Shown: piece after piece, positions 16,385-37,450 of the stretch
Numbering within the stretch: the stretch's first letter is position 1
Layout: each line of letters opens with the position of its first letter
NCBI GenBank assembly: GCA_963805085.1
Contig: CAWDTA010000002.1
Coordinates: forward strand, 1,344,001-1,408,000
Length of the DNA: 64,000 bases
DNA from: an uncultured Veillonellaceae bacterium
Lineage (GTDB): Bacteria > Bacillota > Negativicutes > JARBTT01
Direction of reading: 5' to 3'
Notes under the pieces: generated by a model
What the model saw: only the letters and a program-made list of their open reading frames with translations
Databases searched by the model: none
Told to the model about the DNA's origin: nothing
Program-made: the position numbers and the translations under genes

Positions 16385-16412
16385 GAAGGATATGTCTTGT
16401 TTATACAGAATA
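16385..16412 (+). promoter_or_regulatory. sigmaH-like promoter of kinase A
   Basis: gAAGGA-N17-GAAT, matching the Firmicute sigmaH consensus (AGGA...GAAT). Confidence 0.55.
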
Positions 16413-16487
16413 AAGAAATAGTATATAAAAATTAATGGGGTATTTATTATATTTTACATACTAATATTCTAAGTTGTAGGAGATATT

Positions 16488-18158
16488 ATGGAAAGTTTAT
16501 CTTTAGCATTTCTTAGCTCATTAGGCTCTATGGTTGCGATTATTGGGATCTACAGTTATATTTATGCCATATACAGAGAACGATATATGGGAATATGTGC
16601 AATCAGCTGGAGTTTATTTTTATCGCGTTATGTTATCTTTGATTCAGGAATTTTTGAGTGGAAACAATCAGTATTGGGATTGTTTATATTTCAGATGATC
16701 ATTATCTGGAGTGTACTATTATTTTTGTATGGTACATATGGTTTTTTTAATAAGTCGTATAATAAGAAGTTAGCATGTTATAGTGGTATAGGGATAATGA
16801 TAGCTTTGGTTATTATGGATTGTTTTGTTTCTGATTTAACGTATAAATTGATAATTCCTGTCTGTTTAGGTGTATATGCAGGTATGTCAATTGGATGGAT
16901 TTATATTAAAAACGAAAAAGTCCAAGGATTTGGAGCTTTATGTGTTGGCTATGCTTACATTGGATGGAGTCTTCTTAGTATTTTCATGCCGTTTGCTATT
17001 AATATTAAGTGGTGTTCTCCTTTGGGGTATGTTTTAGGAGGTTTATTTCGTTTAATTATAGCTTTAGGAACATTAATTGTTTATTTTGAAAAAAATCGCA
17101 GGGAGTATATCAAAAAAGAATCAGAGTATCGTTTATTAGCCGAAAATGCCGTTGATGTCATTTACTCTTATCAACTATTACCGGAGCGAAAACTTAAATA
17201 TATCAGTCCGGCAACCTTACATACTACAGGCTATACACCTGAGGAATATTATGCGAATAATAACTTGCTTTTTGAGATCGTCCATAGCGAGGATAGCCCG
17301 ATGCTAAAGAACTTTTATCGTGATTTAGCTAATTTAAATGGTAAACTCTTAACCTTGCGCTTGATTACGAAGCAAGGTAATGTTATCTGGGTAGAGCAAA
17401 AGAGTGTACCGGTCTATGATGAGAACGGTGAAATTGCCGAGATACAAGGAATCATCCGTGATATTACGGACAGAAAAGATCTGGAAAATATTGCAGCGCA
17501 GGTTGACCGGATGAATATGATAGGAAATATGGCGGCAACGGTAGCGCATGAGATCAGGAATCCGATGACAACTGTATTAGGATATATACAATTTTTATCA
17601 TTAAAAAGAAAATATAAAAGCGAAAAAGATATCTTTGAATTGATGATCGATGAACTCAATCGAACCAATGATATTATTCGTGAATATTTGTCTTTATCCA
17701 ACCAAAAGCTAGTTGATTTGAAAAAAGCGTCTTTGAATAAAATTTTGCAGGCCCTATATCCATTGCTTGAGGTTGATGGTTGCTCTAAAAAAGTAAAGGT
17801 AAAACTGGAGCTTGAGGATATTCCTGAGTTGTTATTGGATAGGAATGAGATTCGGCAGTTGGTGCTGAATATGGTGCGTAATGGCATTGAGGCGATGTCA
17901 AAGGGTGGCGAATTAACGCTGGGGACAAAATTAGAAAATAATGAAGTCATTTTATTTATTTGTGATCAAGGTACTGGAATCGATGAAGCAGTCCTTGAAA
18001 AGTTGGGAACCCCGTTTTTTACGACGAAAGCCAATGGTACAGGCTTAGGGCTTTCTATTTGTTATCGGATCGCGAATCGGCATAATGCAACGATCAAAAT
18101 CAATTCCAGTAAAGCTGGCACTACATTTAGAATTTGTTTTAATCGTGATTTAGCGTAA
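16488..18158 (+). CDS. Orphan multi-TM + PAS histidine kinase (kinase A; sporulation-kinase-like H-box)
   Basis: ~7 TM N-terminus, PAS ('YISPA..HTTGYTPEEY...RDITDRK'), AHEIRNPMT, NGIEAM, GTGLGL; no adjacent response regulator. Confidence 0.9.
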   Translation: MESLSLAFLSSLGSMVAIIGIYSYIYAIYRERYMGICAISWSLFLSRYVIFDSGIFEWKQSVLGLFIFQMIIIWSVLLFLYGTYGFFNKSYNKKLACYSGIGIMIALVIMDCFVSDLTYKLIIPVCLGVYAGMSIGWIYIKNEKVQGFGALCVGYAYIGWSLLSIFMPFAINIKWCSPLGYVLGGLFRLIIALGTLIVYFEKNRREYIKKESEYRLLAENAVDVIYSYQLLPERKLKYISPATLHTTGYTPEEYYANNNLLFEIVHSEDSPMLKNFYRDLANLNGKLLTLRLITKQGNVIWVEQKSVPVYDENGEIAEIQGIIRDITDRKDLENIAAQVDRMNMIGNMAATVAHEIRNPMTTVLGYIQFLSLKRKYKSEKDIFELMIDELNRTNDIIREYLSLSNQKLVDLKKASLNKILQALYPLLEVDGCSKKVKVKLELEDIPELLLDRNEIRQLVLNMVRNGIEAMSKGGELTLGTKLENNEVILFICDQGTGIDEAVLEKLGTPFFTTKANGTGLGLSICYRIANRHNATIKINSSKAGTTFRICFNRDLA

Positions 18159-18190
18159 GAAGAAATCACAAATGTAATAATTACAATATG

Positions 18191-18240
18191 AAAAAGCCTA
18201 TTAAGGTTGTAAAATTTTGCAACTTTAATAGGCTTTTTTT
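18191..18240 (+). terminator. Intrinsic terminator after kinase A
   Basis: AAAAAGCCTATTAAGGTTG...CAACTTTAATAGGCTTTTT followed by a T-run. Confidence 0.75.
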
Positions 18241-18278
18241 TGTTTTTTCTCTTTTTTGTGCAATCTTTGGCTATTTTT

Positions 18279-18332
18279 GCAAGGATACTATAAGGTAGCT
18301 ACCGTATCCCTTAAGTCAAGGGGGTGATAGTT
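18279..18332 (+). promoter_or_regulatory. Conserved leader of acyltransferase A: sigmaH-like promoter plus strong SD
   Basis: GCAAGGA-N16-CCGTATCCCTTAAGTCAAGGGGGTGATAGTT; near-identical to the leader at 35626-35677 (-). Confidence 0.65.
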
Positions 18333-18344
18333 ATGAAAGTGTAA
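18333..18344 (+). CDS. Putative tripeptide minigene Met-Lys-Val
   Basis: ATG AAA GTG TAA, 4 nt after AAGGGGGTGAT; paralogous minigene at 35614-35625. Confidence 0.5.
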   Translation: MKV

Positions 18345-18403
18345 TTTTTAGTTAAATCGCAGGGGATTTACACAAATAACTATGATGAAAAGGAGCTTAA
18401 AAA

Positions 18404-19573
18404 ATGAACAATAACAATCTAGGACAAGTTACAATGAAAGAAAAAAATATGGGGGAAGGATTTAAAGTTTGTGTTGCTAATACTTTAGCAGAAAAAAAAG
18501 CAATATATCAATTTCGATATAAAGTTTACGTTGAGGAAATGGCAAAGTATAAACTAATGAATCGTAATAAAGAATTATCAGATGAGATGGATGAATGGGG
18601 GCTATTGATCTATGTCAAAGATGGCGAAGAAGTAGTTGGTACAGCAAGAATGAATATTGGCAAAATGCTAGATTTTCCTGAAGAAATTATTAAAGAGTTA
18701 GCTATGAAGGAATTTCATGAATATTATGTTAGTACAAATAGTGATTATCAAGTGGCTTTGCTTAGTAAATTAATGGTTGCCGTAGAATATAGAAGTTCTT
18801 CGGTTCTTTATTTAATGCTGGTTAAACTTTATGAATTTCATTCTAAAACAGGCGTTCAATTTTCTTTTACAGGATGTAGTTTACATTTATTACGCTTTTA
18901 TGAAAAAATGGGCTTTCATCGCTATAGTAAAAATTTTACTGATTTTGGTTATGGATTATTAAGTCCAGTTGTGGTACTAGTTGATGATGCTAAACATTTT
19001 GCTTCAATACGGTCACCACTTTTTCGTATAGTCAGAAAAAAAGCAACTATAAATTCAAAAGATGTTGAATGGCTTCATGAAAAGTTGACGAAAAAATTAA
19101 ATAATGTGAATAGTCAATTGGTTACGGCAGATGAATTATGGTCAATTTTATGTGAGCGTTTACATGCTTTACCTACGGAAGTCATCGAAATATTGCAGGA
19201 TTTATCGATAGAAGAGGCAAAACTCTTTCTTCATGCCTGCAGTAGTATTGTTCAATGCGCAGCTGGAGAAGCCATTACGGTACAAGGCGATGTCAGTTAT
19301 TCGCATAATATATTACTATCGGGGCGTTTAAAATCGTTAACTTTTATAAATCCAATAAAGGAATATAAGATACCTGGTCAATATTTTGGTGCCAATGGGT
19401 TAACCGAGCATCATAAACATTTAGAAGAGATTGTGACGGCGACGCAATCAGAAATATTGGTGCTAACCGGTTTTACTTTCCCGAATTTTAGTAAAGCTAA
19501 TTTAGACATTGCCCATAAGATAATGAAAAAGATGATCACGATGACAAGAAACCCTGTATTTCATTTAAAATAA
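18404..19573 (+). CDS. GNAT N-acyl-amino-acid-synthase-like (FeeM/LuxI fold) protein with C-terminal cNMP-like domain (acyltransferase A)
   Basis: 'EKKAIYQFRYKVYVEEM...DEMD...VVGTARM...SKLMVAVEYR...LLRFYEKMGF'; C-terminal 'AGEAITVQGD...ILLSGRL...GQYFG'. Confidence 0.78.
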   Translation: MNNNNLGQVTMKEKNMGEGFKVCVANTLAEKKAIYQFRYKVYVEEMAKYKLMNRNKELSDEMDEWGLLIYVKDGEEVVGTARMNIGKMLDFPEEIIKELAMKEFHEYYVSTNSDYQVALLSKLMVAVEYRSSSVLYLMLVKLYEFHSKTGVQFSFTGCSLHLLRFYEKMGFHRYSKNFTDFGYGLLSPVVVLVDDAKHFASIRSPLFRIVRKKATINSKDVEWLHEKLTKKLNNVNSQLVTADELWSILCERLHALPTEVIEILQDLSIEEAKLFLHACSSIVQCAAGEAITVQGDVSYSHNILLSGRLKSLTFINPIKEYKIPGQYFGANGLTEHHKHLEEIVTATQSEILVLTGFTFPNFSKANLDIAHKIMKKMITMTRNPVFHLK

Positions 19574-19585
19574 CGATAACAAATA

Positions 19586-19623
19586 CACCTCCTCCATTAT
19601 CATTTAGATTTTGGAGGAGGTGC
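19586..19623. terminator. Bidirectional terminator between acyltransferase A and kinase B
   Basis: CACCTCCTCCA...TGGAGGAGGTG. Confidence 0.6.
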
Positions 19624-20963
19624 TAACAAATGAAAGCAAATAAAAAAGTAGTTCCTTTGTCACTGGTACTAATTTTAATCGTAGCGTGGTGCCTGTTTGC
19701 TATTTGATAGCAGATAGGAATACCGAGACCCGCCCCCGCTTTTTTTGTAGTAATGAAGGGGGTGCCTAATTTATCTAATACCTCGGGAGCAATTCCAAAG
19801 CCTTGATCATTGATTGACAGGATAACACGATGATCTTCTACGAAGGTTCGAATAGTTATTTTTCCACCCTTTGGCATGGCATCAACACTGTTGCTTATAA
19901 GGTTCAATAGTAGTTGACGTATTTCATTTTCATCTAGCGATAAATCAGGAATGTCTTGGAGATCAAGGATTACCTGTATTTTTAAGGAATTGATATGTTC
20001 ATGGATGAATGGCAGTAAGTCTTGAATCATTGTGTTTAGAGAACAAATTTTTAGATTAGCTACTTTTTGTTTAGATAAAGAAATGTATTTTTGAATGATG
20101 GTATTAACGATGTCGATTTCTTCGATCATTAGTTTGAATTCATCTGTATTAACATTGGCTTTATCTTTTTTTTCGAGAACTTGCAAGTAACCGCGGATTG
20201 TAGTAATCGGGTTTCTAATTTCATGGGCGACGGTAATTGCCATATTTCCAACCATAGTAATTCGATCAGGCAAAAGCTGTTGGTAATAAAAAGCATCGAG
20301 TTCAGTTCCTTTCATTAACTGATACTGCATTTTTTTGCCTAGTAAATCCATTCTGGTTTTCTCAAAATAGACCATTAAAGTACCAATAGCGATAACGAAG
20401 CGTAATATGCCGCCCAGTAAGTAGCACCAAGGAAGAAGATAAATTAATACTTCTGGTATCAAAAATCCAGAGATGTTTAGTAAACTCCACGAGATATAGG
20501 AATAGCCAGTAATAAAGCGTCCAATTCCTTTTAATTTTAAATGGCGAATAAAAAGTAGACCAACCCATATTAAAGCGGAGCAACCAAAAAATAGAGGAAG
20601 TAGTAGTTTATAAACCAAAGATGACAATATAGTGTTTAAAACAACATTTAGGGTAAATGTTGTGATAGCTATGTATAGCCAGCCTTTATTGATAGGTTTG
20701 TTGATAAAGCTATGATTTGCCAACAAAAACGTCAAACTATTCATATAAATAAGTAGTTGATATGTTAACAAGCACCAATTTGATTGTTGCCAATCTAGTA
20801 AATTTGCATCGAAAAACAGATATCGAGAAAGAAGAATGAGCCAACTTAAAGACCATAGCCCCATATACCGTTCACGATATAGTGCAAAAAGATATATATA
20901 GATAATCATCATTGAAATAGTACCGAGTGATGATATAATTATTGATAAAGAAAGATAATCCAT
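19623..20963 (-). CDS. Orphan multi-TM histidine kinase, PAS-less paralog (kinase B)
   Basis: Same N-terminal membrane domain as kinases A and C ('YRERYMGLW'), AHEIRNPIT, GAGLGI. Confidence 0.88.
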   Translation of the reverse strand: MDYLSLSIIISSLGTISMMIIYIYLFALYRERYMGLWSLSWLILLSRYLFFDANLLDWQQSNWCLLTYQLLIYMNSLTFLLANHSFINKPINKGWLYIAITTFTLNVVLNTILSSLVYKLLLPLFFGCSALIWVGLLFIRHLKLKGIGRFITGYSYISWSLLNISGFLIPEVLIYLLPWCYLLGGILRFVIAIGTLMVYFEKTRMDLLGKKMQYQLMKGTELDAFYYQQLLPDRITMVGNMAITVAHEIRNPITTIRGYLQVLEKKDKANVNTDEFKLMIEEIDIVNTIIQKYISLSKQKVANLKICSLNTMIQDLLPFIHEHINSLKIQVILDLQDIPDLSLDENEIRQLLLNLISNSVDAMPKGGKITIRTFVEDHRVILSINDQGFGIAPEVLDKLGTPFITTKKAGAGLGIPICYQIANRHHATIKISTSDKGTTFLFAFIC

Positions 20964-21013
20964 AATTACTCCTAATGAAACTTTATTTTACAATTATTAC
21001 ATATACTGTGGAT

Positions 21014-21040
21014 GTTCTACGGATTTTGTGATTTTCCTTC
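21014..21040 (-). promoter_or_regulatory. sigmaH-like promoter of kinase B
   Basis: Minus strand GAAGGAAAATCACAAAATCCGTAGAAC (AGGA-N17-GAAC). Confidence 0.45.
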
Positions 21041-21203
21041 CCAATTATTGTAATAAATTGATTGATTTAGAAATAATTATGCTAAAATAAATAATAAATT
21101 TAGAATGAAAAATTATTTATGGTGAGGTGGTAGTAATAAAAAGGTGCATTGTATTTTCTGGAATAGTAAGAGAATAAAAATTTGAAAGTTAAAGGGGATT
21201 TTT

Positions 21204-26002: not shown

Positions 26003-26035
26003 ACATAAAGAAAATGTTTGAAGGATGGCGATGAA

Positions 26036-27139
26036 ATGGAAGGTTTGGATAGGAATCAACTTAGTGCAATACGACTAAGAGGATACAAATCTATTAAAGC
26101 TTGCAATTTAGAGTTGAAAAAAATCAATGTGCTTATTGGCAGTAATGGAGCTGGTAAATCAAATTTTATTTCTGCTTTTGCATTATTACAAAATATATTG
26201 GCAAAAAATTTACAAGTAGCGGTTGCTCAAAGTGGAATAAATTCATTATTTTTTAATGGAAAAAAAGTTACCGAAGAAATTGAGTTTGAAGTTTTTTTCG
26301 GTAAGAATTCTTATGGTTTTAATTTAATACCAACAGATGATAATAGACTGATTTTCAGCAAAGAATATTTTGGCTATTATGGAGATTATCAAAACGAAAG
26401 TAATGTAAATCGTGGGCATAGTGAGTCAATGTGGCAAACTGGAACAGGTAACAGGATTGGTGATTATGTGAAACCTATTCTTGAAAAACAAAATTGGCGT
26501 GTGTATCATTTTCATGATACAGGTAGAAATGCAAAGGTGAAAACAGAACATAATATATCAAATAATAAAGCTTTACAATATGATGCAGCCAATTTAGTAG
26601 CATTTTTATTTAGATTAAAAAATAAATTCTCAGATAGCTATCATGAAATTGTGCAGACGATTCGCTTGATTGCTCCATATTTTGATGATTTTGACTTAGA
26701 ACCATTAGAAAATAATCAAGAACAAATAATTTTAAGATGGAAACAAAAAGGTTGTGAAGATATTTTTAATGTTTCGCAATTATCCGATGGTACGCTTAGA
26801 TTTATTTGTCTTGCAACCTTGCTTTTACAACCGCATGAACTCCAACCAGCAACTATTATTGTCGATGAACCGGAATTAGGTTTGCACCCGTATGCGATAA
26901 CAATATTTGCTGAAATGGTAAAGCAGCTTTCTGATGAAAAGCAAATTATTATTTCTACCCAATCGGTAGAACTTCTTAATGAATTTGATGTAGATGATGT
27001 GGTGGTAGTGGATAGGGATACAGATGGCTCGGTATTTAAGAGATTAGAAGAGGAAGAATTAAAAGACTGGATAGAAAACGATTATGCACTTGGTGAGCTA
27101 TGGATTAAAAATGTTTTGGGGGGCAGGCTCTCAAAATGA
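26036..27139 (+). CDS. AAA_21/ABC-type ATPase (defence/TA-associated)
   Basis: 'GYKSI', Walker A GSNGAGKSN, signature LSDGT, Walker B VDEPELGLHP, 'ISTQS'. Confidence 0.88.
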   Translation: MEGLDRNQLSAIRLRGYKSIKACNLELKKINVLIGSNGAGKSNFISAFALLQNILAKNLQVAVAQSGINSLFFNGKKVTEEIEFEVFFGKNSYGFNLIPTDDNRLIFSKEYFGYYGDYQNESNVNRGHSESMWQTGTGNRIGDYVKPILEKQNWRVYHFHDTGRNAKVKTEHNISNNKALQYDAANLVAFLFRLKNKFSDSYHEIVQTIRLIAPYFDDFDLEPLENNQEQIILRWKQKGCEDIFNVSQLSDGTLRFICLATLLLQPHELQPATIIVDEPELGLHPYAITIFAEMVKQLSDEKQIIISTQSVELLNEFDVDDVVVVDRDTDGSVFKRLEEEELKDWIENDYALGELWIKNVLGGRLSK

Positions 27140-27783
27140 AAAATGTATATATTTATTGTGAAGGACAAACTGAAGAATCCTTTATCAATGGAGTGTTATA
27201 TCCATACTTTATGAATATGGACATTTATGTGCGACCAATCATTTGTACTACCAAGAAGACAAAAAAACAAACCTTTAAAGGTGGCGCTAGTACTTATAAT
27301 AAAATAAAAAAAGAGTTAGCCATAATTTGTAATAAACATAAAAACGAAGTCGTTACAACAATGTTTGATTATTATGCAATGCCTGATGACACGCCTAATA
27401 TCAATAATAACGAAGTGGACATTTATAAACGAATTGAGCAAATTGAAGATTCTATTAACGCTGATATTGACATGGGTAATTTATTTTTCGGATTTTCTTT
27501 ACATGAGTTTGAAGCGTTGTTGTTTTCGGAGCCTCATGCATTCAAAGCAATTACAACTGATGACATTATAATTGAGATACAAGCGATGAGAGATGAAGCT
27601 TCAACTCCAGAGCATATTAATAATTCTCCAGAAACAGCACCGTCCAAGCGATTGAAGAAACTTATCAATAATTATTCGAAAATAAGATATGGAACAATTG
27701 TTGCAAAAGAAATCGGAATTGATAAAATCATGAGAGAATGTAAACATTTTGCAAAATGGATAGAAAAAATTAAAGCTTGCTAA
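27136..27783 (+). CDS. DUF4276 (TOPRIM-like) protein coupled to the ATPase
   Basis: 'IYCEGQTEE', 'TTMFDYY', 'HEFEALLFS', 'PEHINNSPETAPSKRL', 'C.HF..W'; ATGA overlap with the ATPase stop. Confidence 0.82.
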   Translation: MKNVYIYCEGQTEESFINGVLYPYFMNMDIYVRPIICTTKKTKKQTFKGGASTYNKIKKELAIICNKHKNEVVTTMFDYYAMPDDTPNINNNEVDIYKRIEQIEDSINADIDMGNLFFGFSLHEFEALLFSEPHAFKAITTDDIIIEIQAMRDEASTPEHINNSPETAPSKRLKKLINNYSKIRYGTIVAKEIGIDKIMRECKHFAKWIEKIKAC

Positions 27784-27859: not shown

Positions 27860-29704
27860 TTATTTCTTCAAGTGATAAGGAATCGTGGAAACGATAACAT
27901 TTTTCTTTAAGATGAGTAGCGTACGTAAGATCAAACCTGTTTGATTGTGTAGAAGCCTGTGCCACCATTTTTTCGTTTCAAATTCAGGAATGAGAATCGT
28001 AATATAATCATTAGGTCCTTTTTCTTGTGAAAGCTCTTCGATGAAATCAATCAAAGGCTGTACGACAAGACGATAAGGGGAATATAAAGTTACAAGTTCA
28101 ATGCCAGGATTCCAACAATTCCATTTTTCACGTACTTTATGACCGACTTCTTCATCAATCGCAACGTGTACTGCCAAGACATTATCACCAATTGATTTGG
28201 CATATTTTAAAGTTTGGGCAATAACGCTGGTTGGACTAGAAATTGGAACGACTACGATATTTTTACCAGCATGAATTTCGGTGGTCAAGGCAGGATCCAT
28301 CTGTTCGCTTGGGAGATGAAGTTGTTCCGCCATATCGTTGTAATGCTCTTTGATTTTTCTAAAGATGAAAATCATGATAGGAATGAAGATAAGTACGAGC
28401 CAAGCACCGTAGAAAAATTTGCTGATACCGATAATTAATACGACGATACCAGTTACTATCGCTCCCACTGTATTGACTGTGGCACGGAGAATCCAATAAG
28501 GACCCTTAACGCGGCGCCAGTGGACAATCATACCTGTTTGAGCAATGGTAAAAGATAAAAATACACCGATCGCATAAAGTGAGATGAGATGGTCAGTATT
28601 GCCTTGATAAAGGAAGATTAACATTCCAGCAGCAATACTTAAGAGAATAATACCATTAGAAAAACTGAGACGTTCACCACGGGCACCAAGGTAACGTGGC
28701 ATATAGCCGTCGCGGGCTAGAATAGATAGAAGGGGTGGTAATCCATTAAAGGAAGTGTTCGCTGCCAAATAGAGTACCAGCATTGTGGTGATTTGGATAT
28801 AGTAATAAAACCAGTTACGCCCAAAGGTCAATTCCGCTATTTTAGACAAAGACGTAGCATCTTCGAGTGGTAATATATGAAAATGCATAATTAAAAATGA
28901 TATTCCAATAAACATAAAGCCAAGGATACCAGACATCCAAAAAGTTGTTGTACTCGCATTTTTTACTGAAGGCTCCTTAAACATTGGCACTCCATTGGAA
29001 ATGGCCTCGATACCAGTCATAGAACTACAACCATTTGCGAAGGCCCGCAGTAATAATACACCAACAGTCCAATCAAATTGCCGTTCCAAGGATTCGGTGG
29101 GAATGATAGGAGTTTGTTGTGTGAATGCTTGATAGATTCCAGTGAAAATTAGAACCAATATGCCAAAAATAAAGGCATAAGTAGGGAATACAAAGGTAGT
29201 TGAAGATTCTCTGATGCCTCGTAAATTGACTAACATAAGGATAAAAAATAATACGAATAAGTCAATTGATACTTCATATTGCAATAAATCAGGAAATGCT
29301 GAAATGATAGCGGATGTACCTGCCGAAACACTAACAGCTACGGTTAATGTATAGTCAGCCAATAAGGAAGCTGCTGCCGTTAGGGCGGGAAGTTCACCTA
29401 AATTTTTAATGGCTACGGAATAAGAACCGCCACCACCAGGATTGGCTTTACCAACTTGAACATAGGAAATGGTTACAATCGCCAACAATAGTAAGATGGC
29501 TATGGCAACATGACTTAAATATCCATAAGCTAAAAGCCCAGGCACAGCAAGAATAATCATAATCTGTTCCGGTCCATAAGCAACCGAAGACAGTGCATCA
29601 GAAGAAAAAATAGCAAGAGCTTTAAACTTGGTTAGTTTTTCATGTGAAATTTCTTGATTGTGTAGCGGCCTGCCGATTAATAATCGCCTAAGCAAACGCA
29701 TCAT
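27860..29704 (-). CDS. kimA: APC-family K+ transporter KimA/YdaO
   Basis: 'LIGRPL..', 'SSDALSSVAYGPEQ', 'IPEFETKKWWHRLLHNQT'; c-di-AMP riboswitch upstream. Confidence 0.9.
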   Translation of the reverse strand: MMRLLRRLLIGRPLHNQEISHEKLTKFKALAIFSSDALSSVAYGPEQIMIILAVPGLLAYGYLSHVAIAILLLLAIVTISYVQVGKANPGGGGSYSVAIKNLGELPALTAAASLLADYTLTVAVSVSAGTSAIISAFPDLLQYEVSIDLFVLFFILMLVNLRGIRESSTTFVFPTYAFIFGILVLIFTGIYQAFTQQTPIIPTESLERQFDWTVGVLLLRAFANGCSSMTGIEAISNGVPMFKEPSVKNASTTTFWMSGILGFMFIGISFLIMHFHILPLEDATSLSKIAELTFGRNWFYYYIQITTMLVLYLAANTSFNGLPPLLSILARDGYMPRYLGARGERLSFSNGIILLSIAAGMLIFLYQGNTDHLISLYAIGVFLSFTIAQTGMIVHWRRVKGPYWILRATVNTVGAIVTGIVVLIIGISKFFYGAWLVLIFIPIMIFIFRKIKEHYNDMAEQLHLPSEQMDPALTTEIHAGKNIVVVPISSPTSVIAQTLKYAKSIGDNVLAVHVAIDEEVGHKVREKWNCWNPGIELVTLYSPYRLVVQPLIDFIEELSQEKGPNDYITILIPEFETKKWWHRLLHNQTGLILRTLLILKKNVIVSTIPYHLKK

Positions 29705-30197: not shown

Positions 30198-31583
30198 TTA
30201 TAATCTTCTTGCAGCTTCAGAAGCTAAAGGCGATCGTTCACATTCTTCTGGCAACATCGTTACTTGGAAGCATAATTTAGAGCCCATCATTTTTTCACTG
30301 GCATAGCTTAATCCGTTAGATCTGCTATCGAGTAAAGGGTGGTCAATTTGTGCAGGATCGCCAAGTAAGATTATTTTGGTGCCGATGCCGGGGCGGGTTA
30401 ATACAGCTTTTGCTTGGCGGGGCGTAGAATTTTGCATTTCATCGAAGATCGTCCAATATTTTTGGAGTGACCGACCACGTTGGTAAGCCAAGGCTTCCGT
30501 TTGGATGATACGTCTTTCAAAAAGCATATTTACGGTATCTTCTGTTTGTAAGAAGTCTTTGTCTTCTAGTGAAGAATTCCCTGACATCAGGGTAAATAGA
30601 TTGTCTTTAATCGCTCGCATATAGGGTTCTATTTTTTCCGCCTCAGTTCCAGGTAAAAAACCGATTCCCTCATCAAGCATCGCATTTGGACGACAGATCA
30701 GGATATGTTGATATTGTTTTGGTTGGCAATCCATATAATGATAGAGTCCAACGGCCAAGGAATAAAAGGTTTTAGCAGTTCCTGAAATTCCTTTTAAGAT
30801 AACCAGTGGTGCTTGTTCTGCACTCATCATGAGACATTCTTGCATGAAAATTTGACCTACATTTTTAGGCGTGACTCCGAACGGGGTGCGGCTTTGATAT
30901 TTTAAGTGGATTACCTTTTCGCCATCAAAACGGCCCAGTGCAGTATGCCTATCATTATCTGTTGATTTGATCAACAAAAATTGGTTAGTGACGAAAGTAG
31001 CGGGTATTAATATATCTGTTAAATCATCGAAAATATATAATTTATTTGGGTCGATAAATTGCTTATCATCGGAATGGAAAGCATTTATTACTTCACTGGA
31101 GGTATAAGCAATGATGCGACCGGTATATTGCTCTTCGATGCTAGCGACTTTATCATTGCGAAAATCTTCAGCTTGAATTTTTAAGATAGATGCTTTGACG
31201 CGCATATTGGTATCGCGGCTCACTAAAATAGTTTGCTCTCCACTTTCGACAAACCCTTTGCAAACTTGGAGAATCCGATTATCAGATTTCTCTTTGTCCC
31301 AATATATAGGCATGGAAGTGGCGGTATGATTTGCTTCTAAAATGAGAGTTCCGCCGTTGTTATTTAAAGAAACTCCCTCTAGCAGATTACCTTGAATGCG
31401 CATAGTATCAATAATACGACTAACATGGCGACTGTTGGCACCGCGTTCTGTTGATTCTTTTTTAAATCGGTCCAACTCTTCAATAACAACTTCGGGAATT
31501 ACCACTGTGTGTTCGTTGAAAGCATATAAAGCATTGGGTGAGTGCAGCAAAACATTAGTGTCTAAGACATAATATTTTTTCAA
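30198..31583 (-). CDS. PIN-PhoH (PhoH2/YlaK-like) ATPase/RNase
   Basis: 'YVLDTNVLL' PIN domain, GISGTAKT, 'RGRS', 'DEMQN', 'GDPAQID'. Confidence 0.9.
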   Translation of the reverse strand: MKKYYVLDTNVLLHSPNALYAFNEHTVVIPEVVIEELDRFKKESTERGANSRHVSRIIDTMRIQGNLLEGVSLNNNGGTLILEANHTATSMPIYWDKEKSDNRILQVCKGFVESGEQTILVSRDTNMRVKASILKIQAEDFRNDKVASIEEQYTGRIIAYTSSEVINAFHSDDKQFIDPNKLYIFDDLTDILIPATFVTNQFLLIKSTDNDRHTALGRFDGEKVIHLKYQSRTPFGVTPKNVGQIFMQECLMMSAEQAPLVILKGISGTAKTFYSLAVGLYHYMDCQPKQYQHILICRPNAMLDEGIGFLPGTEAEKIEPYMRAIKDNLFTLMSGNSSLEDKDFLQTEDTVNMLFERRIIQTEALAYQRGRSLQKYWTIFDEMQNSTPRQAKAVLTRPGIGTKIILLGDPAQIDHPLLDSRSNGLSYASEKMMGSKLCFQVTMLPEECERSPLASEAARRL

Positions 31584-31946: not shown

Positions 31947-31961
31947 ATAAAGAGGAATGTC

Positions 31962-32411: not shown

Positions 32412-32431
32412 GCGGGTTTTAAATAGACGAA

Positions 32432-32454: not shown

Positions 32455-32485
32455 TAAATAAAGGATATAGCATAGGAGGTTTACG

Positions 32486-33067
32486 ATGAAAAAAATACAA
32501 TGGAGTTTTAGTGTAATCGTAGCAATTTTGCTCTGCTTTGAGGCAACAGTACTCTGCTTCGCCAACGAGAATAAAGGGGTCGCTGATCAAAGAATTCTTT
32601 TGGTTATTGTTGATCAATCAAAAGAAACATATGGCACTGAAATGAAAAATCAAGTTTATAACCAATTAAAAAGTCAGGTAAAAGGTTTTATTAATGAAGG
32701 AAATGCTCTCAATGATAGTAACAGAGATAACGATGCAATAGCAAAATCAGAGCAGCCTGAGTTATTGCAATTGGCAAACGACAAGGGTGCTAAGCAAGTA
32801 TTACTTGTAGAGATATTGCCAACGAAATCTGATTTTAGTGATATTATCTTCTATAAGGCAATTAAGTCGGAGGCTACGCTAAGGGTTCGTTTATATGATG
32901 CTACGACGAAGCAATATAGGTTGAATGAAACGGTGTCAGGGATAGATACAAATAAAACCTACATTCCCTATACCGGTGTAGGGAAAAAAGTCACTGTATT
33001 AGAGGCGGTTCATAAAGCGACTGATATCGTAGCTCAAAAAGTCTGCTCAGTGGGGGAAGTGCAATAA
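32486..33067 (+). CDS. Exported hypothetical protein
   Basis: Signal-peptide-like N-terminus; AGGAGG SD. Confidence 0.75.
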   Translation: MKKIQWSFSVIVAILLCFEATVLCFANENKGVADQRILLVIVDQSKETYGTEMKNQVYNQLKSQVKGFINEGNALNDSNRDNDAIAKSEQPELLQLANDKGAKQVLLVEILPTKSDFSDIIFYKAIKSEATLRVRLYDATTKQYRLNETVSGIDTNKTYIPYTGVGKKVTVLEAVHKATDIVAQKVCSVGEVQ

Positions 33068-33093
33068 ACTAAGTTTTGCTATGGAGGCTGACT

Positions 33094-34203
33094 ATGAATA
33101 GACGGCAATTCATTCAGTGCGGTATAGTCACAATTGTCGCAGCAGGAGGATTCCCTATGTTTAGTTCCTTATCACAGTTGGAGACAGTAGCTAGAGAGAA
33201 TTTGCATGATAATGTGGCAGGATTAGAAGCAGATTACATTGATATTTTATATTTAGCATCATTGGCACCTAGCGGGCATAATGCACAACCGTGGACGGTA
33301 AAGCTTATGAATGACCATCATTGGATTATCGGTACAGATTCTAATCGGTGGTTACCTGTTATTGATCCAGAAAATAGGGAAGCACTTATTTCAATTGGTG
33401 CCTTTTTGGAAAATTTGGTGGTTGCGGCGAATTCAAAAGGCTATCATGTAGAATATCATATCATAGCTAAAAATCTCAAAGACAAAGACATAGTAGAGAT
33501 AAATTTATATAAAGTAGGTTTGCCGGACACTTCTGACGTCAAAAATATTGAATTGCGTAGAACCGTGAGAAATAAATTACTTACAGATGATTTATCTAGA
33601 GAAGATATTGAGTTTATGATAGGAGAAAATAAAGATGGCTTTCATTATTTTCCACGTAATACAAAAGAAGAGCAGTATTTAAGTGAAGGGACTATTCTAG
33701 CTAATAAATTACAGACCTACCAAGATTCAGCGCAAGACGAACTGGCTAAATGGGTTCGTTGGTCAAATAAGGATATTAGACAATTTGGCAATGGATTAAC
33801 AACTGAAACGATGGAAATAGAAGGGTTTGCCAGATGGTATGTTAAAAATTTTTATTCCAAGCAATCTGTGTTAGCGAATAGTTTTCGTGAAGCGACGATC
33901 AAGAAAATAACGGAGCAAGTGACAAATGGCAGTGGCTGGTTACTTCTTACGAGTATGGATTCCTCGGCGCTTGAGCTTATCGATCTAGGACGAAAACTTC
34001 AGCAAATGTGGCTTGGTATAAGAGAGAGACAAATCGCAATTCATCCGATGAATCAACTGATTGAAGATGTAGCAATGCGTGGTAAGACTTCTTCAGCCTT
34101 GGGGATTGCAGGCGATAGCCAACTTCTTCTTAGAGTTGGCTATATCAATAACTATCCTAAACCGGTCAGCCCAAGGATGTCTTTGCAAACTATCATCGTA
34201 TAA
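33094..34203 (+). CDS. Acg-like nitroreductase/FMN-binding protein with Tat-like signal
   Basis: 'MNRRQFI' twin-arginine motif, 'ASLAPSGHNAQPW', 'LLRVGY'. Confidence 0.82.
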   Translation: MNRRQFIQCGIVTIVAAGGFPMFSSLSQLETVARENLHDNVAGLEADYIDILYLASLAPSGHNAQPWTVKLMNDHHWIIGTDSNRWLPVIDPENREALISIGAFLENLVVAANSKGYHVEYHIIAKNLKDKDIVEINLYKVGLPDTSDVKNIELRRTVRNKLLTDDLSREDIEFMIGENKDGFHYFPRNTKEEQYLSEGTILANKLQTYQDSAQDELAKWVRWSNKDIRQFGNGLTTETMEIEGFARWYVKNFYSKQSVLANSFREATIKKITEQVTNGSGWLLLTSMDSSALELIDLGRKLQQMWLGIRERQIAIHPMNQLIEDVAMRGKTSSALGIAGDSQLLLRVGYINNYPKPVSPRMSLQTIIV

Positions 34204-34287
34204 AAAATTTGCTCATCACTTAGAATTTGATGTGGATATTTTTGTTATACGTATTCAGCAATAGCATTGGTTCTGCCAATAACAATA

Positions 34288-34329
34288 AATTGCCGTTACA
34301 CTTGAAGTTAACAAGTTGTAACGGCAATT
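34288..34329. terminator. Bidirectional terminator
   Basis: AATTGCCGTTACA...TGTAACGGCAATT between convergent genes. Confidence 0.65.
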
Positions 34330-34396
34330 ATATCTGTGATTAAATAGAATACAAATGGATTATTAAATTACTTGTTTGTTCACGTGGAAGTAGCAA

Positions 34397-35557
34397 TTAG
34401 CGACGTGATGGATATCTATCACATCGGCTAATGTTTTGCAGGATGTTGTTAGCAACGTTTGGATTTGCATTGCTGAATTTAGGAAAGGCTAAGCTGGAAA
34501 GTACTAATATCTCAGTGGTGGTAGTGGCAAAAATATCTTCCGTATGCTTAGGATGATTGACCAAGCCATTCACACCGATGGCATGGGCTGGGGGAATATG
34601 AGTGGTGACTGAGTTTGATATGTTTGCCGATCTTAGTTGCCCGGAGATTAATATATTTAGCGCATAGTTTGTATCGCCCTGGCAGGTAATCTGATCGCCT
34701 GCATCACAATGGACAACAACACCGCAGGAATGTAGAAACTTTATCGCATCTATATCCGATAAGTCTTGTAATAGCGGCAGAGCTTGATTTGGATAAGTAC
34801 CAAGCCGAGTATATAAAAACTCCCATAGTTCCTCTTGGCTAACTAGCTGGCTGTTTAGTATTTTTGAGTTTTCTTCAAACTCTTTATAAAACCATTGGAT
34901 TGCTTGGCTGTCTAACGATGCTCTTTTTCGCGCCGCACGATAAAAGGGAGAACGTACAGCTCGTAAATGGGCAATGTCATCTACCAATAAAACATAGGGA
35001 GCTAGTAATCCGTAACCATCATCAATAAAATTTCGCCCAAAACGGCGGAACCCAAATTGTTCATAGAGTCGTAATAAATGAAAATTACATACACCAAAAC
35101 TAAATTGTATTTGGTGCTGGCAATAAAATTGATAGCTCTCAATTGCAAGCAAATAGGATACAGTGGAATTTCGATAAGCTGCTGCTACCATAAATTTTGA
35201 GGTATAGGCGAATTGTTGATTGTTTTTCGTAAACTCTGAAAATTTTTTTAGAGAAAGTACTTGTATCCAAAACGAAGGGAAATCGTTAATTTGGCCAATA
35301 TTTACTCTTAGGGTGCCAATGATTTCTGAGCCAGCTTTAGCGTACACAATCAAGGCCCAGTCATCAAGATCATCATATAATAATTTATTCTTGTGATCCA
35401 TATTAGGAAAACGTTTAGCCATTTCCTCAGCATAGATACGATAACGAAAACGGTAAATTTCGATTTTTTCCTCAGCGGTTGTGGCGAGCCCGATTGTTAC
35501 TGCTTTTTCTTCTTCATTTAGGCAAGGAATTGTGTTCAGGTCATTCGGTTTCATCAT
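34397..35557 (-). CDS. GNAT N-acyl-amino-acid-synthase-like protein with cNMP-like domain (acyltransferase B)
   Basis: Paralog of 18404-19573: 'EKIEIYRFRYRIYAEEM', 'SKFMVAAAYR', 'LLRLYEQFGF', 'LRAVRSPF', 'NSQLV', 'AGDQITCQGD'. Confidence 0.78.
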   Translation of the reverse strand: MMKPNDLNTIPCLNEEEKAVTIGLATTAEEKIEIYRFRYRIYAEEMAKRFPNMDHKNKLLYDDLDDWALIVYAKAGSEIIGTLRVNIGQINDFPSFWIQVLSLKKFSEFTKNNQQFAYTSKFMVAAAYRNSTVSYLLAIESYQFYCQHQIQFSFGVCNFHLLRLYEQFGFRRFGRNFIDDGYGLLAPYVLLVDDIAHLRAVRSPFYRAARKRASLDSQAIQWFYKEFEENSKILNSQLVSQEELWEFLYTRLGTYPNQALPLLQDLSDIDAIKFLHSCGVVVHCDAGDQITCQGDTNYALNILISGQLRSANISNSVTTHIPPAHAIGVNGLVNHPKHTEDIFATTTTEILVLSSLAFPKFSNANPNVANNILQNISRCDRYPSRR

Positions 35558-35613
35558 TTTATTTCTCCTTTAATAATTCGTTATCTTTGCGTAAGGTTTT
35601 TAAAAAAATCACA

Positions 35614-35625
35614 TTACGTTTTCAT
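35614..35625 (-). CDS. Putative tripeptide minigene Met-Lys-Thr
   Basis: ATG AAA ACG TAA, 4 nt after a perfect AAGGAGGTGAT SD. Confidence 0.5.
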   Translation of the reverse strand: MKT

Positions 35626-35677
35626 AACGATCACCTCCTTGGCTAAGGGATACGGAGAAATATGAAGTTTTCCTTGC
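35626..35677 (-). promoter_or_regulatory. Conserved leader of acyltransferase B: sigmaH-like promoter plus perfect SD
   Basis: Minus strand GCAAGGA-N15-CCGTATCCCTTAGCCAAGGAGGTGATCGTT. Confidence 0.65.
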
Positions 35678-35724
35678 TAAATGTAGAAAATTTGAATGGA
35701 TTCTACAATTAATATAATTAAATA

Positions 35725-35771
35725 AAAGAAGCTCTTTTCAAAAGTAATTTACAATTGAAAAGAGCTTCTTT
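35725..35771 (-). terminator. Terminator after kinase C
   Basis: AAAGAAGCTCTTTTCAA...TTGAAAAGAGCTTCTTT. Confidence 0.7.
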
Positions 35772-37450
35772 TATTCTACTGTATTAGGTAAATTGAAATA
35801 AACAGCAATCATAGTGCCTTGAGGGCTACTTTTAATATCAATAAAAGCATTGTGTCTATGGGCAATTTGATAACAGATCGGCAGGCCTAAACCTGTGCCA
35901 GTATTTTTCGTGGTGATAAATGGTGTGCCTAATTTCTCCAGTACATGTGCTGGTATTCCAGAACCTTGATCACTGATAGATAGAGTAACAATATTGTTAT
36001 CTAGGGAAGTTTTTATAGCCAGAATGCCACCGTTTGGCATTGCCTCAATACTGTTACGTACTAAGTTAAGTAGCAGTTGACGAATTTCATTCTCATCTAA
36101 TAGTAGTTCAGGTATATTACTAAGCTCAAGTGTGACAGAGATTTTTGAAGCAGTTGCATCCGCCTCAATTAAAGGAAATAATAATTCAATAAATTGGTTT
36201 AAAGAACTTTTTTTTAGATCAGTTAGCTTCTCTCGTGATAAAGCAAGGTATTCGCGGATAATATCATTGGCCCTATCAATTTCTTCGATCATTAAGTTAA
36301 AGATTTCTTTATCAGCCTGATATGCCTCTTTCTTCCCGATAAATTGTAGATAGCCACGAATCGTCGTCATTGGATTTCTAATTTCATGAGCGACTGTAAC
36401 AGCCATACTCCCCACCATATTCATTCGATCAGCACATGCGGCGACTTTTTCTAATGCCTTGCGGGCGGTGATATCGCGAATAATACCTTCTAGTGCGATG
36501 AGGTGCCCTACTTTATCATAAATAGGGACACATTTTTGTTCAATCCATAAAATCGTTTTATCTTTTCGGACTAAACGTAAAACTAGTGGTAAGTCGTTAA
36601 TTTGACAGTTGTTGTGAATAAAATGATTGAATAAATGGTGATCGTCGGGATGGATCAATTTTAATACCAATTTTTCGTTCGTGTAATATTCCTCTGATGT
36701 ATAACCAGTAATGGAAAGCACTGAAGGGCTGATGTATTCAATTTTAGCTTTCGGTAGCATACTATAATGAAAAATGATGTCAATTGCGTTTTCTAAAAGT
36801 AATCGATAATGTGTTTCTCTATCTATCAGATTTGCTCTGCTTCTTTCCAAGAAAACCATTACCGTACTAATGGTAATAATTAATCTCAGCATACTACCAG
36901 TGAGTGAGATCAATAGGGGATACATTTCAATAAAAAATGGCAGTATCATAGTAAGAATACTCCAGAGGAGAAAAGCAATGCCCGTAATGATTTTACCCAC
37001 GCCCACCGCTTCTGTATAACGGAAGAAAACCGTAGAAATCCAGGCTAATACGATAAAGCTAAACCAAGCTGGGGGTATTATTTTATAGGAAAATGGTATC
37101 GGAGTCCAAAAAAGTAAGATACTTAAGAGAGAAGCGCTAACAGCGCCGTATAACCACCACTTATTAAACTTCTTATCAATAAAAATATAGGTGCCCCAGA
37201 CAAAGGTTAAACTGCAAGCAATAAAAAATAATTGATAGAAGGTGAAGGGCAGTAGCGATTGCTTCCATTGGAAGAAGTTATTGAATATGCCTGAGTCAAA
37301 GAATATATTTCTAAGAAATAGGATGCTCCAAGCGATTGCCCAAATGCCAATATAGCGTTCATGATACAAAGAATACAAATAAATATAAACAAGTATCATC
37401 GAAATTGTGCCAGTTATTGTACCAATGATTGATAAGTAAATATAATCCAT
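35771..37450 (-). CDS. Orphan multi-TM + PAS histidine kinase (kinase C)
   Basis: Start moved to ATG 37450 (AGGAG SD; MDYIYL matches the kinase B start). PAS, AHEIRNPMT, GTGLGL. Confidence 0.9.
   Translation of the reverse strand: MDYIYLSIIGTITGTISMILVYIYLYSLYHERYIGIWAIAWSILFLRNIFFDSGIFNNFFQWKQSLLPFTFYQLFFIACSLTFVWGTYIFIDKKFNKWWLYGAVSASLLSILLFWTPIPFSYKIIPPAWFSFIVLAWISTVFFRYTEAVGVGKIITGIAFLLWSILTMILPFFIEMYPLLISLTGSMLRLIITISTVMVFLERSRANLIDRETHYRLLLENAIDIIFHYSMLPKAKIEYISPSVLSITGYTSEEYYTNEKLVLKLIHPDDHHLFNHFIHNNCQINDLPLVLRLVRKDKTILWIEQKCVPIYDKVGHLIALEGIIRDITARKALEKVAACADRMNMVGSMAVTVAHEIRNPMTTIRGYLQFIGKKEAYQADKEIFNLMIEEIDRANDIIREYLALSREKLTDLKKSSLNQFIELLFPLIEADATASKISVTLELSNIPELLLDENEIRQLLLNLVRNSIEAMPNGGILAIKTSLDNNIVTLSISDQGSGIPAHVLEKLGTPFITTKNTGTGLGLPICYQIAHRHNAFIDIKSSPQGTMIAVYFNLPNTVE

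Follow-up and report, generated by a model that had tools for sequence, protein, structure and literature searches.

A recurrent gene pair for a seven-helix membrane histidine kinase and a putative N-acyl amide synthase in the Negativicutes

The window analysed here is a stretch of 64,000 nucleotides from an uncultured Veillonellaceae bacterium (G000:C2:1344001-1408000), whose assembly has 4.2 Mb in five contigs and is 83% complete, with 6% contamination. Between positions 16385 and 37450 it contains two modules in which the gene of a histidine kinase with a seven-transmembrane (7TM) sensor domain precedes the gene of a two-domain protein, an N-acyltransferase of the GNAT type followed by the fold of the cyclic nucleotide monophosphate (cNMP) binding proteins, here called GNAT-cNMP. 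As a conserved and repeatedly duplicated association of a 7TM kinase with an enzyme of the acyl-amide synthase group, this module is real and robust. The gene anatomy, taken from the listing of open reading frames (ORFs) and from Pfam scans of the window, is the following.

16488-18158, plus strand: KinA, 556 aa; 7TM sensor at aa 1 to about 205, PAS at 236-328, HisKA at 346-405 (H-box AHEIRNP), HATPase_c at 451-552.
18404-19573, plus strand: GNAT-A, 389 aa; Acetyltransf_5/FeeM N-acyltransferase domain at aa ~20-215, cNMP-binding-fold domain at aa ~235-380 with a degenerate phosphate-binding cassette.
19623-20963, minus strand: KinC, 446 aa; 7TM, HisKA and HATPase_c, no PAS; convergent with GNAT-A.
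34397-35557, minus strand: GNAT-B, 386 aa; paralogue of GNAT-A with 44% identity over the full length, both domains present.
35771-37450, minus strand: KinB; 7TM, PAS, HisKA and HATPase_c, with the ATG at 37450 as its likely start.

An earlier, sequence-only reading of this DNA had proposed the order kinase, terminator, leader and acyltransferase for two modules, with a third kinase converging on the first of them, and the ORFs, domains, hairpins and leaders of both were all found, together with KinC, whose end lies 49 bp from that of GNAT-A. For KinB, the start at 37450 is preferred over a TTG at 37498, as it agrees with the alignment of the family and is preceded by a strong ribosome-binding site. 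Identities among the three kinases amount to 47-48%, and the residues of the membrane-domain motif that had been described as common to them are present in each. The Pfam scans detected no receiver domain within 16385-37450, the nearest Response_reg match lying at 10329-10658, about 6 kb upstream of KinA. As regards KinC, no comparably short 7TM frame was found beside GNAT-A orthologues in the relatives searched, and at the sole GNAT-A-orthologue locus that was read (L006) the downstream ORF is not a kinase.

The count of two modules was too low for the genome, where a whole-genome search recovered five copies of GNAT-cNMP, of which one is truncated to 130 aa, as well as eight 7TM kinases; all five copies are paired with such a kinase, and seven of the eight kinases lie beside a GNAT. 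The three copies outside the window share a second layout, called type 2 here, in which a regulator with REC and HTH_AraC domains is divergent from an operon running from the GNAT to the kinase. One of these loci has the order GNAT, kinase, kinase, and a 10-base overlap of GNAT and kinase gene is seen at one locus. The type-2 kinases have no PAS domain, carry the H-box VAHDFKAPL, and are 22% identical to KinA in the core and 30% in the membrane domain; the layout is also present in one relative (G004). The absence of an adjacent response regulator, claimed for the kinases from the sequence alone, therefore holds for KinA, KinB and KinC and fails for their type-2 paralogues. Given that the type-2 modules retain the 7TM domain and the GNAT despite a different core, H-box and regulator, what stays constant is the association of the membrane domain with the GNAT-cNMP protein, and the kinase core and the "orphan" status vary. 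One type-2 module (G000:C2:1719010-1722273; L005/L106) is decaying, with the GNAT of 130 aa standing before an intact 486-aa 7TM kinase and the divergent regulator broken up, with a partial REC frame and HTH_AraC in an ORF of its own. A GGDEF-EAL protein is found near the type-2 module at C2:1311258-1313288.

The pairing was followed in 40 relatives of the same class by comparing the coordinates of GNAT and kinase matches within a limit of 3 kb. GNAT-cNMP occurs in 16 of these 40 genomes (17/41 with the present one) and the membrane-domain kinase in 18 (19/41). Every one of the 30 GNAT matches in the relatives has a kinase match within the limit, with a same-strand upstream kinase in 29 and a downstream kinase in 2, so that the GNAT side is without exception in the class sample (35/35 with the present genome included). 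The kinase side is looser, as 31 of the 45 kinase matches in the relatives adjoin a GNAT and 14 do not, two of these at contig ends. The dependence is thus one-sided, the GNAT never being found without the kinase and the kinase sometimes being found without the GNAT, which is the pattern of quorum-sensing systems with "solo" receptors.

A scan of public contigs, limited to one genome per species, returned 80 loci, of which 41 are of the Negativicutes type (Sporomusa, Pelosinus, Propionispora, Massilibacillus, Anaerospora, Lucifera and metagenome-assembled genomes). Of these 41, 39 have a membrane-domain kinase of 550-580 aa immediately upstream and in the same orientation, and the other two have less than 300 nt of upstream DNA each and are hence uninformative. 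Conservation of the pairing in other genomes, on which the earlier proposal had been made to depend, was thus observed at every Negativicutes locus that could be examined. The other 39 loci, from Proteobacteria, cyanobacteria, Nitrospirota, Leptospiraceae and others, encode full-length relatives with 25-33% identity; none of them (0/39) has the membrane-domain kinase beside the GNAT-cNMP gene, and five whole genomes among them lack the membrane domain altogether. The pairing of kinase and GNAT is therefore specific to the Negativicutes, and no earlier description of such a pairing of a kinase with an acyl-amide synthase was found in the literature searched, whose coverage leaves out most subscription journals. 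Among the 41 is a contig of 3293 nt labelled as a metagenome-assembled Sphingobacterium sp. (L054), which carries a Negativicutes-type GNAT-cNMP gene with a degenerate cassette, followed by radical-SAM fragments, and is probably mis-binned. Furthermore, histidine kinases convergent to or near a GNAT of canonical cNMP type were seen at five loci of other phyla (L067, L071, L078, L098 and L103; three labelled Rhodospirillaceae/Rhodospirillales, one Binatia and one Nitrospirota), and the L071 kinase, the only one scanned, has a MASE1 membrane domain; given these loci, the association of GNAT-cNMP with kinases may have arisen more than once.

The two genes have also been inherited together. The distance matrices of kinase and GNAT over 44 pairs are correlated with r=0.78, a value reached by none of 2000 permutations, the nearest neighbours agree in both proteins for 29 of the 44 pairs, and the two trees are largely congruent and recover the same seven or so clades, each spanning several genera. 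Since the clades are the same in both trees and species with multiple pairs hold one pair from each of several clades, the pairs are old paralogues inherited as units, in agreement with the diversification into paralogous pairs that had been proposed. The domains have evolved at different rates, with mean distances of 1.25 for the membrane domain, 1.23 for the cyclic-nucleotide-binding-domain-like (CNBD-like) part and 0.56 for the kinase core, the slowest. The 7TM distances track those of the GNAT (r 0.82) and the CNBD (r 0.83) best, and the partial correlation is 0.58 for the 7TM domain given the core and 0.34 for the core given the 7TM domain. A purely genealogical explanation, in which the two genes are neighbours by descent and have no functional link, draws on the fact that linkage alone yields correlated trees and distances, but the pairing has survived in at least seven ancient paralogue clades and in many genera, it has persisted in the type-2 modules, where the kinase core was exchanged and the gene order changed, and its GNAT side shows no exception in the class sample or at any informative contig locus, all of which makes this explanation very improbable. 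Chance adjacency was rejected on the same lack of exceptions on the GNAT side.

The N-terminal domain of the enzyme falls, as had been proposed, in the Acetyltransf_5/FeeM group of N-acyl synthases. The profile of Acetyltransf_5 (PF13444) matches GNAT-A with 35.1 bits and the other window GNAT with 32.9, above the gathering score of 22.4; FeeM (PF21926, cut-off 27) scores 30.1 bits in GNAT-B and 26.0 in GNAT-A; and cNMP_binding (PF00027) remains below its cut-off of 27.5, with 22.2 bits for GNAT-A and 24.1 for GNAT-B. At E<=0.01, the three profiles match 39, 36 and 38 of 40 family members, respectively, and at this threshold Autoind_synth has no match in the two window GNATs, nor does it appear among the families listed for the 40 members. 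The NCBIfam models give weak matches to the exosortase-associated acyltransferase TIGR03694 (30-31 bits, cut-off 112) and to OlsB (14-25 bits, E 1e-5 to 0.04, cut-offs 320-350), and the names in public databases, all automatic, are "cyclic nucleotide-binding protein", "GNAT family N-acyltransferase" and "FeeM domain-containing protein". In the AlphaFold 2 (AF2) model of the protein, with a predicted local distance difference test (pLDDT) of 85.7 and a predicted template-modelling (TM) score (pTM) of 0.84, a GNAT fold and a CNBD fold are both present as predicted structures: the Foldseek matches are dominated by CNBDs (E ~2e-8) and include the GNAT structures 1q2y (TM score 0.87 on the target) and 3efa, and the CNBD beta-barrel also has a profile match to the regulatory subunits of PKA (E 1e-8). 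The conserved charged residues of the GNAT domain are R38, E44, E45, D63, R82, K122 and R130, and motifs of the D-x-[FL]-D and R-Y/E-E types are common to GNAT and FeeM/N-acyl amino acid synthases.

The second domain, on the other hand, does not bear out its description as a cNMP binder. Its phosphate-binding cassette reads FGANGL...KHTED where PKA and CRP read FGE...PR[ST]A, and the Glu of FGE and the Arg of PR[ST]A are presumably the residues that contact the cyclic nucleotide. Both contacts are kept in none of 42 Negativicutes-type sequences, as against 31 of 39 relatives from other phyla, and at the Arg position every one of the 42 has another residue, such as His, Gln or Asn; a true sensor of cyclic AMP in the Negativicutes was rejected on this loss. 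An adenylate/guanylate cyclase gene adjoins the GNAT in three Leptospiraceae/Spirochaetales loci. The contacts kept outside the Negativicutes and these cyclase neighbours therefore point to an ancestrally cNMP-regulated acyltransferase, whose cNMP binding would have been lost in the very lineage that has the kinase pairing.

This coincidence between the loss of the contacts (0/42 vs 31/39) and the lineage where the pairing arose also suits an explanation in which the partner of the kinase is the protein itself, i.e., the GNAT-CNBD protein would act in the cytoplasm as an accessory sensor docked to the kinase, with its altered fold binding a metabolite and its GNAT domain acylating the kinase or serving as a scaffold. 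Such an arrangement would fit the CNBD evolving as fast as the 7TM domain and correlating best with it (r 0.83), and mycobacterial cAMP-regulated protein acetyltransferases, which combine CNBD and GNAT, provide a precedent. However, the GNAT belongs to the acyl-amide synthase group, outside the protein acetyltransferase families, the relatives in other phyla have no kinase partner, and the tailoring enzymes found beside it or fused to it, described below, imply a small-molecule substrate; we regard this explanation as unlikely. A structure prediction of the kinase-GNAT complex, made at full length with own alignments and without controls, scored 0.30 against a mark of 0.32 and speaks neither for nor against binding.

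The neighbours of the enzyme provide a further indication of what it acts on. In 12 paired contig loci, the GNAT stop codon coincides with the start of a gene for a B12-binding radical-SAM enzyme of ~580 aa or is only a few bases away from it. Three further loci, from relatives (L019-L021), have this arrangement too, and the contig L054 carries fragments of such an enzyme. Outside the Negativicutes, the downstream gene of L062 encodes a SAM methyltransferase, with similar ORFs in roughly ten loci, an approximate figure since the BLAST cluster also takes in the GNATs, and a haem-oxygenase-like protein (Haem_oxygenas_2) lies directly downstream in six cyanobacterial loci and three others. There are also natural fusions of the GNAT with Haem_oxygenas_2 (P0117, 488 aa) and with a B12-binding domain (P0099, 656 aa). 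Given these tailoring-enzyme neighbours and fusions, the gene content argues for a GNAT that acts on a small molecule rather than on proteins, as the sequence-only reading had supposed. A protein acetyltransferase was rejected, as the GNAT subgroup is the wrong one and the neighbours are tailoring enzymes. A GNAT-cNMP ORF of 691 aa with an extra C-terminal part was seen in a metagenome-assembled genome of Spirochaetales (L092).

The sensor of the kinase is almost entirely buried in the membrane. The AF2 model of KinA aa 1-219, built on an alignment of 33 sequences, has seven helices (pLDDT 91.7), located as follows.

KinA aa 2-29, 32-52, 62-86, 93-113, 122-141, 148-170 and 177-218: predicted helices 1 to 7 of the 7TM domain.

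The outer loops have only ~3-9 residues, and the loop charges fit a topology with the N-terminus outside and the C-terminus inside, which leaves the output domain in the cytoplasm; Tyr29, Trp41, Glu201 and, within helix 7, Arg188 are among the invariant residues. None of the three window 7TM domains has a relevant Pfam match even at E<=10, including to 7TMR-DISM_7TM, HisKA_7TM, MASE3 and 5TMR-LYT, and a Foldseek search of the 7TM model against PDB gave no fold match at E<=0.001, the best being generic rhodopsin or G-protein-coupled receptor (GPCR) bundles at E>=0.016 and TM scores of 0.4-0.5. An Atlas feature search with the 7TM part returned only unnamed clusters at 0.90-0.94, with the named 7TM families at 0.82-0.83, all of which count as leads only. 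A profile search of 1.84 billion representatives recovered 1324 clusters at E<=1e-3, of which 336 reach E<=1e-30, and the nine long members that were scanned comprise 7TM-PAS-GGDEF-EAL proteins, hybrid kinases and one GAF-rich kinase. The 7TM domain is thus a large, unnamed and general sensor module. In the predicted structure, the very short outer loops leave a near-zero extracytoplasmic surface, which suits a ligand within the membrane or the sensing of the state of the membrane itself.

The latter possibility leads to an explanation by envelope homeostasis, in which the GNAT would make a membrane aminolipid like that of OlsB and the intramembrane kinase would monitor the bilayer and feed back on its composition. 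A kinase nearly without extracytoplasmic loops, the weak OlsB (E 1e-5 to 0.04) and exosortase-associated acyltransferase matches, and the diderm envelope of the Negativicutes are in keeping with it, but the OlsB scores of 14-25 bits are far under the cut-offs of 320-350, the neighbours examined include no OlsA-type partner, and up to five diverged pairs per genome with fast-evolving sensor and regulatory domains suit a diversified specificity better than a housekeeping lipid, for which reasons we consider it improbable.

Within the modules, kinase and enzyme genes appear as separate transcription units, whose signals are given below.

18191-18238, plus strand: terminator after KinA, a 20-pair stem followed by a T run; -28.9 kcal/mol, z -9.06.
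35721-35775, minus strand: terminator hairpin after KinB, missed by a simple scan; -28.7 kcal/mol, z -9.23.
16387-16411, plus strand: sigmaH-like motif AGGA-N17-GAAT before KinA (pattern match).
21014-21038, minus strand: sigmaH-like motif AGGA-N17-GAAC before KinC (pattern match).
18282-18307, plus strand: promoter-like motif AGGA-N16/17-CCGTA(T/A) before GNAT-A, a conserved bipartite element.
35650-35674, minus strand: promoter-like motif AGGA-N17-CCGTAT before GNAT-B, a conserved element.
18302-18344, plus strand: GNAT-A leader, with CCGTAT, a small hairpin in which a pyrimidine run pairs with the GGGGGTGA ribosome-binding site, and a mini-ORF.
18333-18344, plus strand: mini-ORF of the GNAT-A leader, ATG AAA GTG TAA, three codons.
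35614-35655, minus strand: GNAT-B leader, with the mini-ORF ATG AAA ACG TAA at 35625-35614.

None of 200 shuffled sequences was as stable as either terminator hairpin. The pattern AGGA-N17/18-G(A/T)A(T/C), which had been claimed as a promoter for KinA, KinB and both GNAT leaders, is present before KinA, before KinC as well, and in the two GNAT leaders, whose second element is of the CCGTA type rather than GAAT; KinB has no AGGA/GAAT motif within 200 nt upstream or in the window-wide scan. The AGGA/GAAT motif matches the sigmaH consensus. It occurs as AGGA-N17/18-GAA(T/C) 34-95 nt before the start codons of KinA, KinC and many orthologues (many in clade I), with 8 of 40 upstream regions of family kinases matching strictly against a shuffle mean of 0.3, and 14 against 0.8 in the relaxed form. 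In the window itself, the G(A/T)A(T/C) pattern is not enriched (19 matches against 13.4 +/- 3.6 expected, with 19 reached in 10 of 100 shuffles), so that its weight rests on the conservation across genomes.

The long element shared by the GNAT-A and GNAT-B leaders, already recognized as a conserved leader, recurs beyond the window. Of 42 kinase-GNAT intergenic regions, 27 have the relaxed AGGA...CCGTA motif, where 0.5 would be expected, and CCGTA may be read either as a -10 element or as part of the RNA. The mini-ORF, mostly Met-Lys-Thr-stop, lies ~30-60 nt before the GNAT start in 22 of the 42 regions and only in some paralogue clades, and the complete leader pattern has exactly two occurrences in the 4.2-Mb genome, both before type-1 GNATs. 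A consensus fold of 14 leaders supports the hairpin of Shine-Dalgarno (SD) and anti-SD sequences alone, with five pairs, two of which have compensatory changes; a second stem seen by eye, in which the end of the mini-ORF would pair with downstream sequence, was not recovered in this fold. Rfam searches of 16000-38000 at E<=1 assigned no family to the leaders and gave only microRNA-like noise over the terminators.

The kinase core differs from the sensor in that the helix around the phospho-accepting His, in the dimerization and histidine phosphotransfer (DHp) domain, is almost invariant across 40 type-1 kinases. This is expected of two-component paralogues with one common partner, and several channels therefore probably feed one shared partner. 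The same observation bears on the explanation in which the enzyme is an output rather than the source of an input, i.e., the kinase would sense a different cue in the membrane, and the GNAT, together with the radical-SAM enzyme at those loci that have one, would be a locally regulated target that makes a secondary metabolite, surfactant or antibiotic. The conserved promoter-like motif and leader that the GNAT has apart from the kinase gene, the divergent REC and AraC regulator placed to control the type-2 operon, the tailoring genes that resemble a small biosynthetic cluster and the wide occurrence of the 7TM domain without a GNAT would all be accommodated by this explanation. It is weakened by the type-1 kinases, which have no local regulator to act on the GNAT promoter, by the near-invariant DHp, which points to one partner and is a poor fit to pair-specific control of up to 4-5 GNAT genes per genome, and, weakly, by a 7TM divergence that tracks GNAT and CNBD more than the core does. 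We consider it rather unlikely, if less so than the docking of the two proteins.

The identity of the shared partner leads to the question of sporulation. In favour of a link, the kinases combine the AHEIRNP H-box with a PAS domain and with orphan status, their DHp hardly varies, promoters of a sigmaH-like kind are seen, and there is co-occurrence with Spo0A: Spo0A_C is found in all 18 relatives that carry the 7TM kinase, and the kinase in none of the 15 Spo0A-negative relatives. In addition, spo0B-spo0F is reported from Negativicutes (10.1101/2022.02.25.481979). Several results weigh on the other side. The H-box, which the sequence-only reading had taken as a sign of sporulation kinases, is not specific to them: the AtoS (185-207 bits) and ZraS (148-164) models score on a par with KinD (151-167, cut-off 775) or higher, all of them far below their cut-offs. 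The type-2 modules have a regulator of their own, and the motif is missing before KinB, as stated. The co-occurrence with Spo0A is confounded by phylogeny, relatives not being independent samples, and seven Spo0A-positive genomes are without the kinase. Neither Spo0A_C nor SpoIVA_ATPase was found in the 83%-complete assembly itself, though it has a SpoIIE-like frame of 841 aa, and a genome of the same genus (G001) does carry Spo0A_C. Taken together, these sequence comparisons leave the link with sporulation possible but doubtful, at roughly one chance in three.

The explanation that we prefer, and hold tentatively at somewhat less than even confidence, is that the kinase encoded beside the enzyme senses a lipophilic acyl amide from within the membrane. 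In this two-gene signalling module specific to the Negativicutes, the cytoplasmic N-acyltransferase of the FeeM/OlsB type would probably make a lipophilic N-acyl amide, which a co-translated B12 radical-SAM enzyme may tailor in about one third of the loci, and the product would partition into the membrane, where the seven-helix bundle of the adjacent histidine kinase would read it within the bilayer. The C-terminal cNMP-type fold would no longer bind cyclic AMP or cyclic GMP and presumably serves to bind a different ligand, which may be the product, or else a partner. The two genes would be transcribed separately, the kinase from a sigmaH-like promoter and with its own terminator, and the enzyme from its own conserved promoter-like motif through a leader with a sequestered ribosome-binding site and the three-codon mini-ORF. 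An ancient duplication would have given rise to at least seven paralogous pairs, in which the sensor and enzyme parts diverged and the type-1 phosphotransfer helix remained nearly invariant, so that several channels probably feed one shared partner, plausibly a Spo0F/Spo0A relay; the derived type-2 form has its own REC and AraC regulator instead.

A number of observations weigh against this explanation. The congruent trees and correlated distances are weak evidence for function, as tight linkage alone would give them, and the tracking of GNAT and CNBD by the 7TM domain is suggestive only, given that faster domains carry more signal. The 7TM module is widespread without the GNAT: of 150 further genomes of the phylum, 10 carry the membrane domain, in frames of 577-1085 aa, and none of these 10 has a GNAT-cNMP gene, just as the GNAT-cNMP relatives of other phyla work without a 7TM kinase. 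In addition, no exporter was found associated with the kinase-GNAT pair, and the degenerate cNMP fold is left without an assigned role. Any role of the product between cells would belong to a bolder form of the same idea, in which the pairs would constitute an acyl-amide language of spore-forming Negativicutes, with each FeeM-type synthase making a distinct N-acyl amide detected within the membrane by a dedicated 7TM receptor kinase, much as GPCRs of animals detect acyl-amide lipids, the channels converging through the invariant phosphotransfer helix on Spo0F/Spo0A, sporulation being gated by cell density or kin, and the former cyclic AMP pocket being re-used for product feedback. We consider this unlikely as a whole.

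To our knowledge, cell-to-cell signalling in the Bacillota is known almost entirely from peptides, and the ligand sensed by the orphan kinases that start sporulation is a long-standing question. The module offers a candidate ligand source beside a candidate receptor, in several diverged copies per genome, and is conserved in Sporomusa, Pelosinus, Propionispora, Anaerospora, Lucifera and their relatives. Its analysis has also defined a large unnamed family of 7TM sensors (more than 1300 representative clusters) and revealed a family of apparently cNMP-regulated acyltransferases with the binding lost in one lineage, as well as a conserved leader with a three-codon mini-ORF. If the enzyme turns out to be only a regulated output, the module would still mark an uncharacterised pathway to acyl-amide natural products.

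The window contains other features around the two modules. Just 5' of KinA, at 13996-16276, lie a fragment of a methyl-accepting chemotaxis protein, 278 aa in length, and a diguanylate cyclase of the GGDEF type with 365 aa, with a 20-pair hairpin on the minus strand (16266-16219) between these genes and the KinA promoter. The overlapping genes of an AAA_21 ATPase (373 aa) and a DUF4276 protein (215 aa) at 26018-27783, plus strand, match the PADLOC candidate defence system HEC-01 (HEC-01A, E 2.5e-143; HEC-01B, E 7.3e-76). A cyclic di-AMP riboswitch (RF00379; 29834-29972, minus strand; 84.8 bits, gathering score 38) stands directly 5' of a 614-aa amino-acid permease gene (27860-29704, AA_permease_2). 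There are also a PIN and PhoH fusion protein of 461 aa at 30198-31583, minus strand, and a double treble-clef zinc-finger protein of 99 aa at 37901-38200, plus strand, just upstream of KinB. In the genome as a whole, nine identical copies of a 26-nt string are spread over all five contigs; they presumably belong to some repeated element, for instance rRNA operons or an insertion sequence.

Among known systems, the mycobacterial cAMP-regulated acetyltransferases likewise have a cyclic-nucleotide-binding fold and a GNAT in one polypeptide, and the relatives outside the Negativicutes resemble them further in keeping the contacts (31/39), whereas here the GNAT comes first, and belongs to the acyl-amide synthase group rather than to the protein lysine acetyltransferases, and the contacts are lost in the Negativicutes. 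The FeeM and long-chain N-acyl amino acid synthases share the N-terminal domain, which matches Acetyltransf_5 and FeeM and, weakly, TIGR03694, a PEP-CTERM/exosortase-associated acyltransferase with a proposed signalling role beside a two-component system. The present enzyme differs from these in its C-terminal cNMP-binding fold, in its pairing with a 7TM kinase rather than with PrsK/PrsR, and in a TIGR03694 score of 30-31 bits against 112. As to the sensor, BtsS is reported to be a LytS-type 7TM histidine kinase that binds pyruvate (PMC10653868), so that in both cases a histidine kinase has a 7TM bundle as its sensor, and that of BtsS binds a small ligand; no sequence-family relation was found, the 7TM domain here having no Pfam match, and the core and the type of regulator differ.

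The Bacillus KinA-E and clostridial orphan Spo0A kinases are similar in combining PAS and a HisKA domain with AHEIRNP, in having no adjacent regulator, and in forming paralogues with a conserved DHp. The sigmaH-like promoter of the window KinA and its clade, and the restriction of the kinase to Spo0A-bearing genomes among the relatives sampled, add to this likeness. Unlike them, the present kinases score 164-167 bits against the KinD equivalog cut-off of 775, are matched equally by AtoS and ZraS, and have a 7TM sensor without a named counterpart there.

Finally, the closest parallel in organization is found in LuxM/LuxN, AinS/AinR and CqsA/CqsS, the quorum-sensing pairs of Vibrio, each composed of a synthase and a membrane histidine kinase. 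The synthase here is of the Acetyltransf_5/FeeM type with a CNBD fold and has no Autoind_synth match (the LuxM/AinS and CqsA models lying outside the comparison), the kinases are not receiver-bearing hybrids, the gene order and the separate transcription differ, and the host belongs to a Bacillota lineage. At the level of the genes, a putative synthase gene conserved beside that of a membrane kinase, as in such pairs, is found here. As in Vibrio, the gene of a candidate lipophilic-signal synthase lies beside that of a polytopic membrane kinase that may sense in its transmembrane bundle, and the parallel channels would converge on one phosphorelay.

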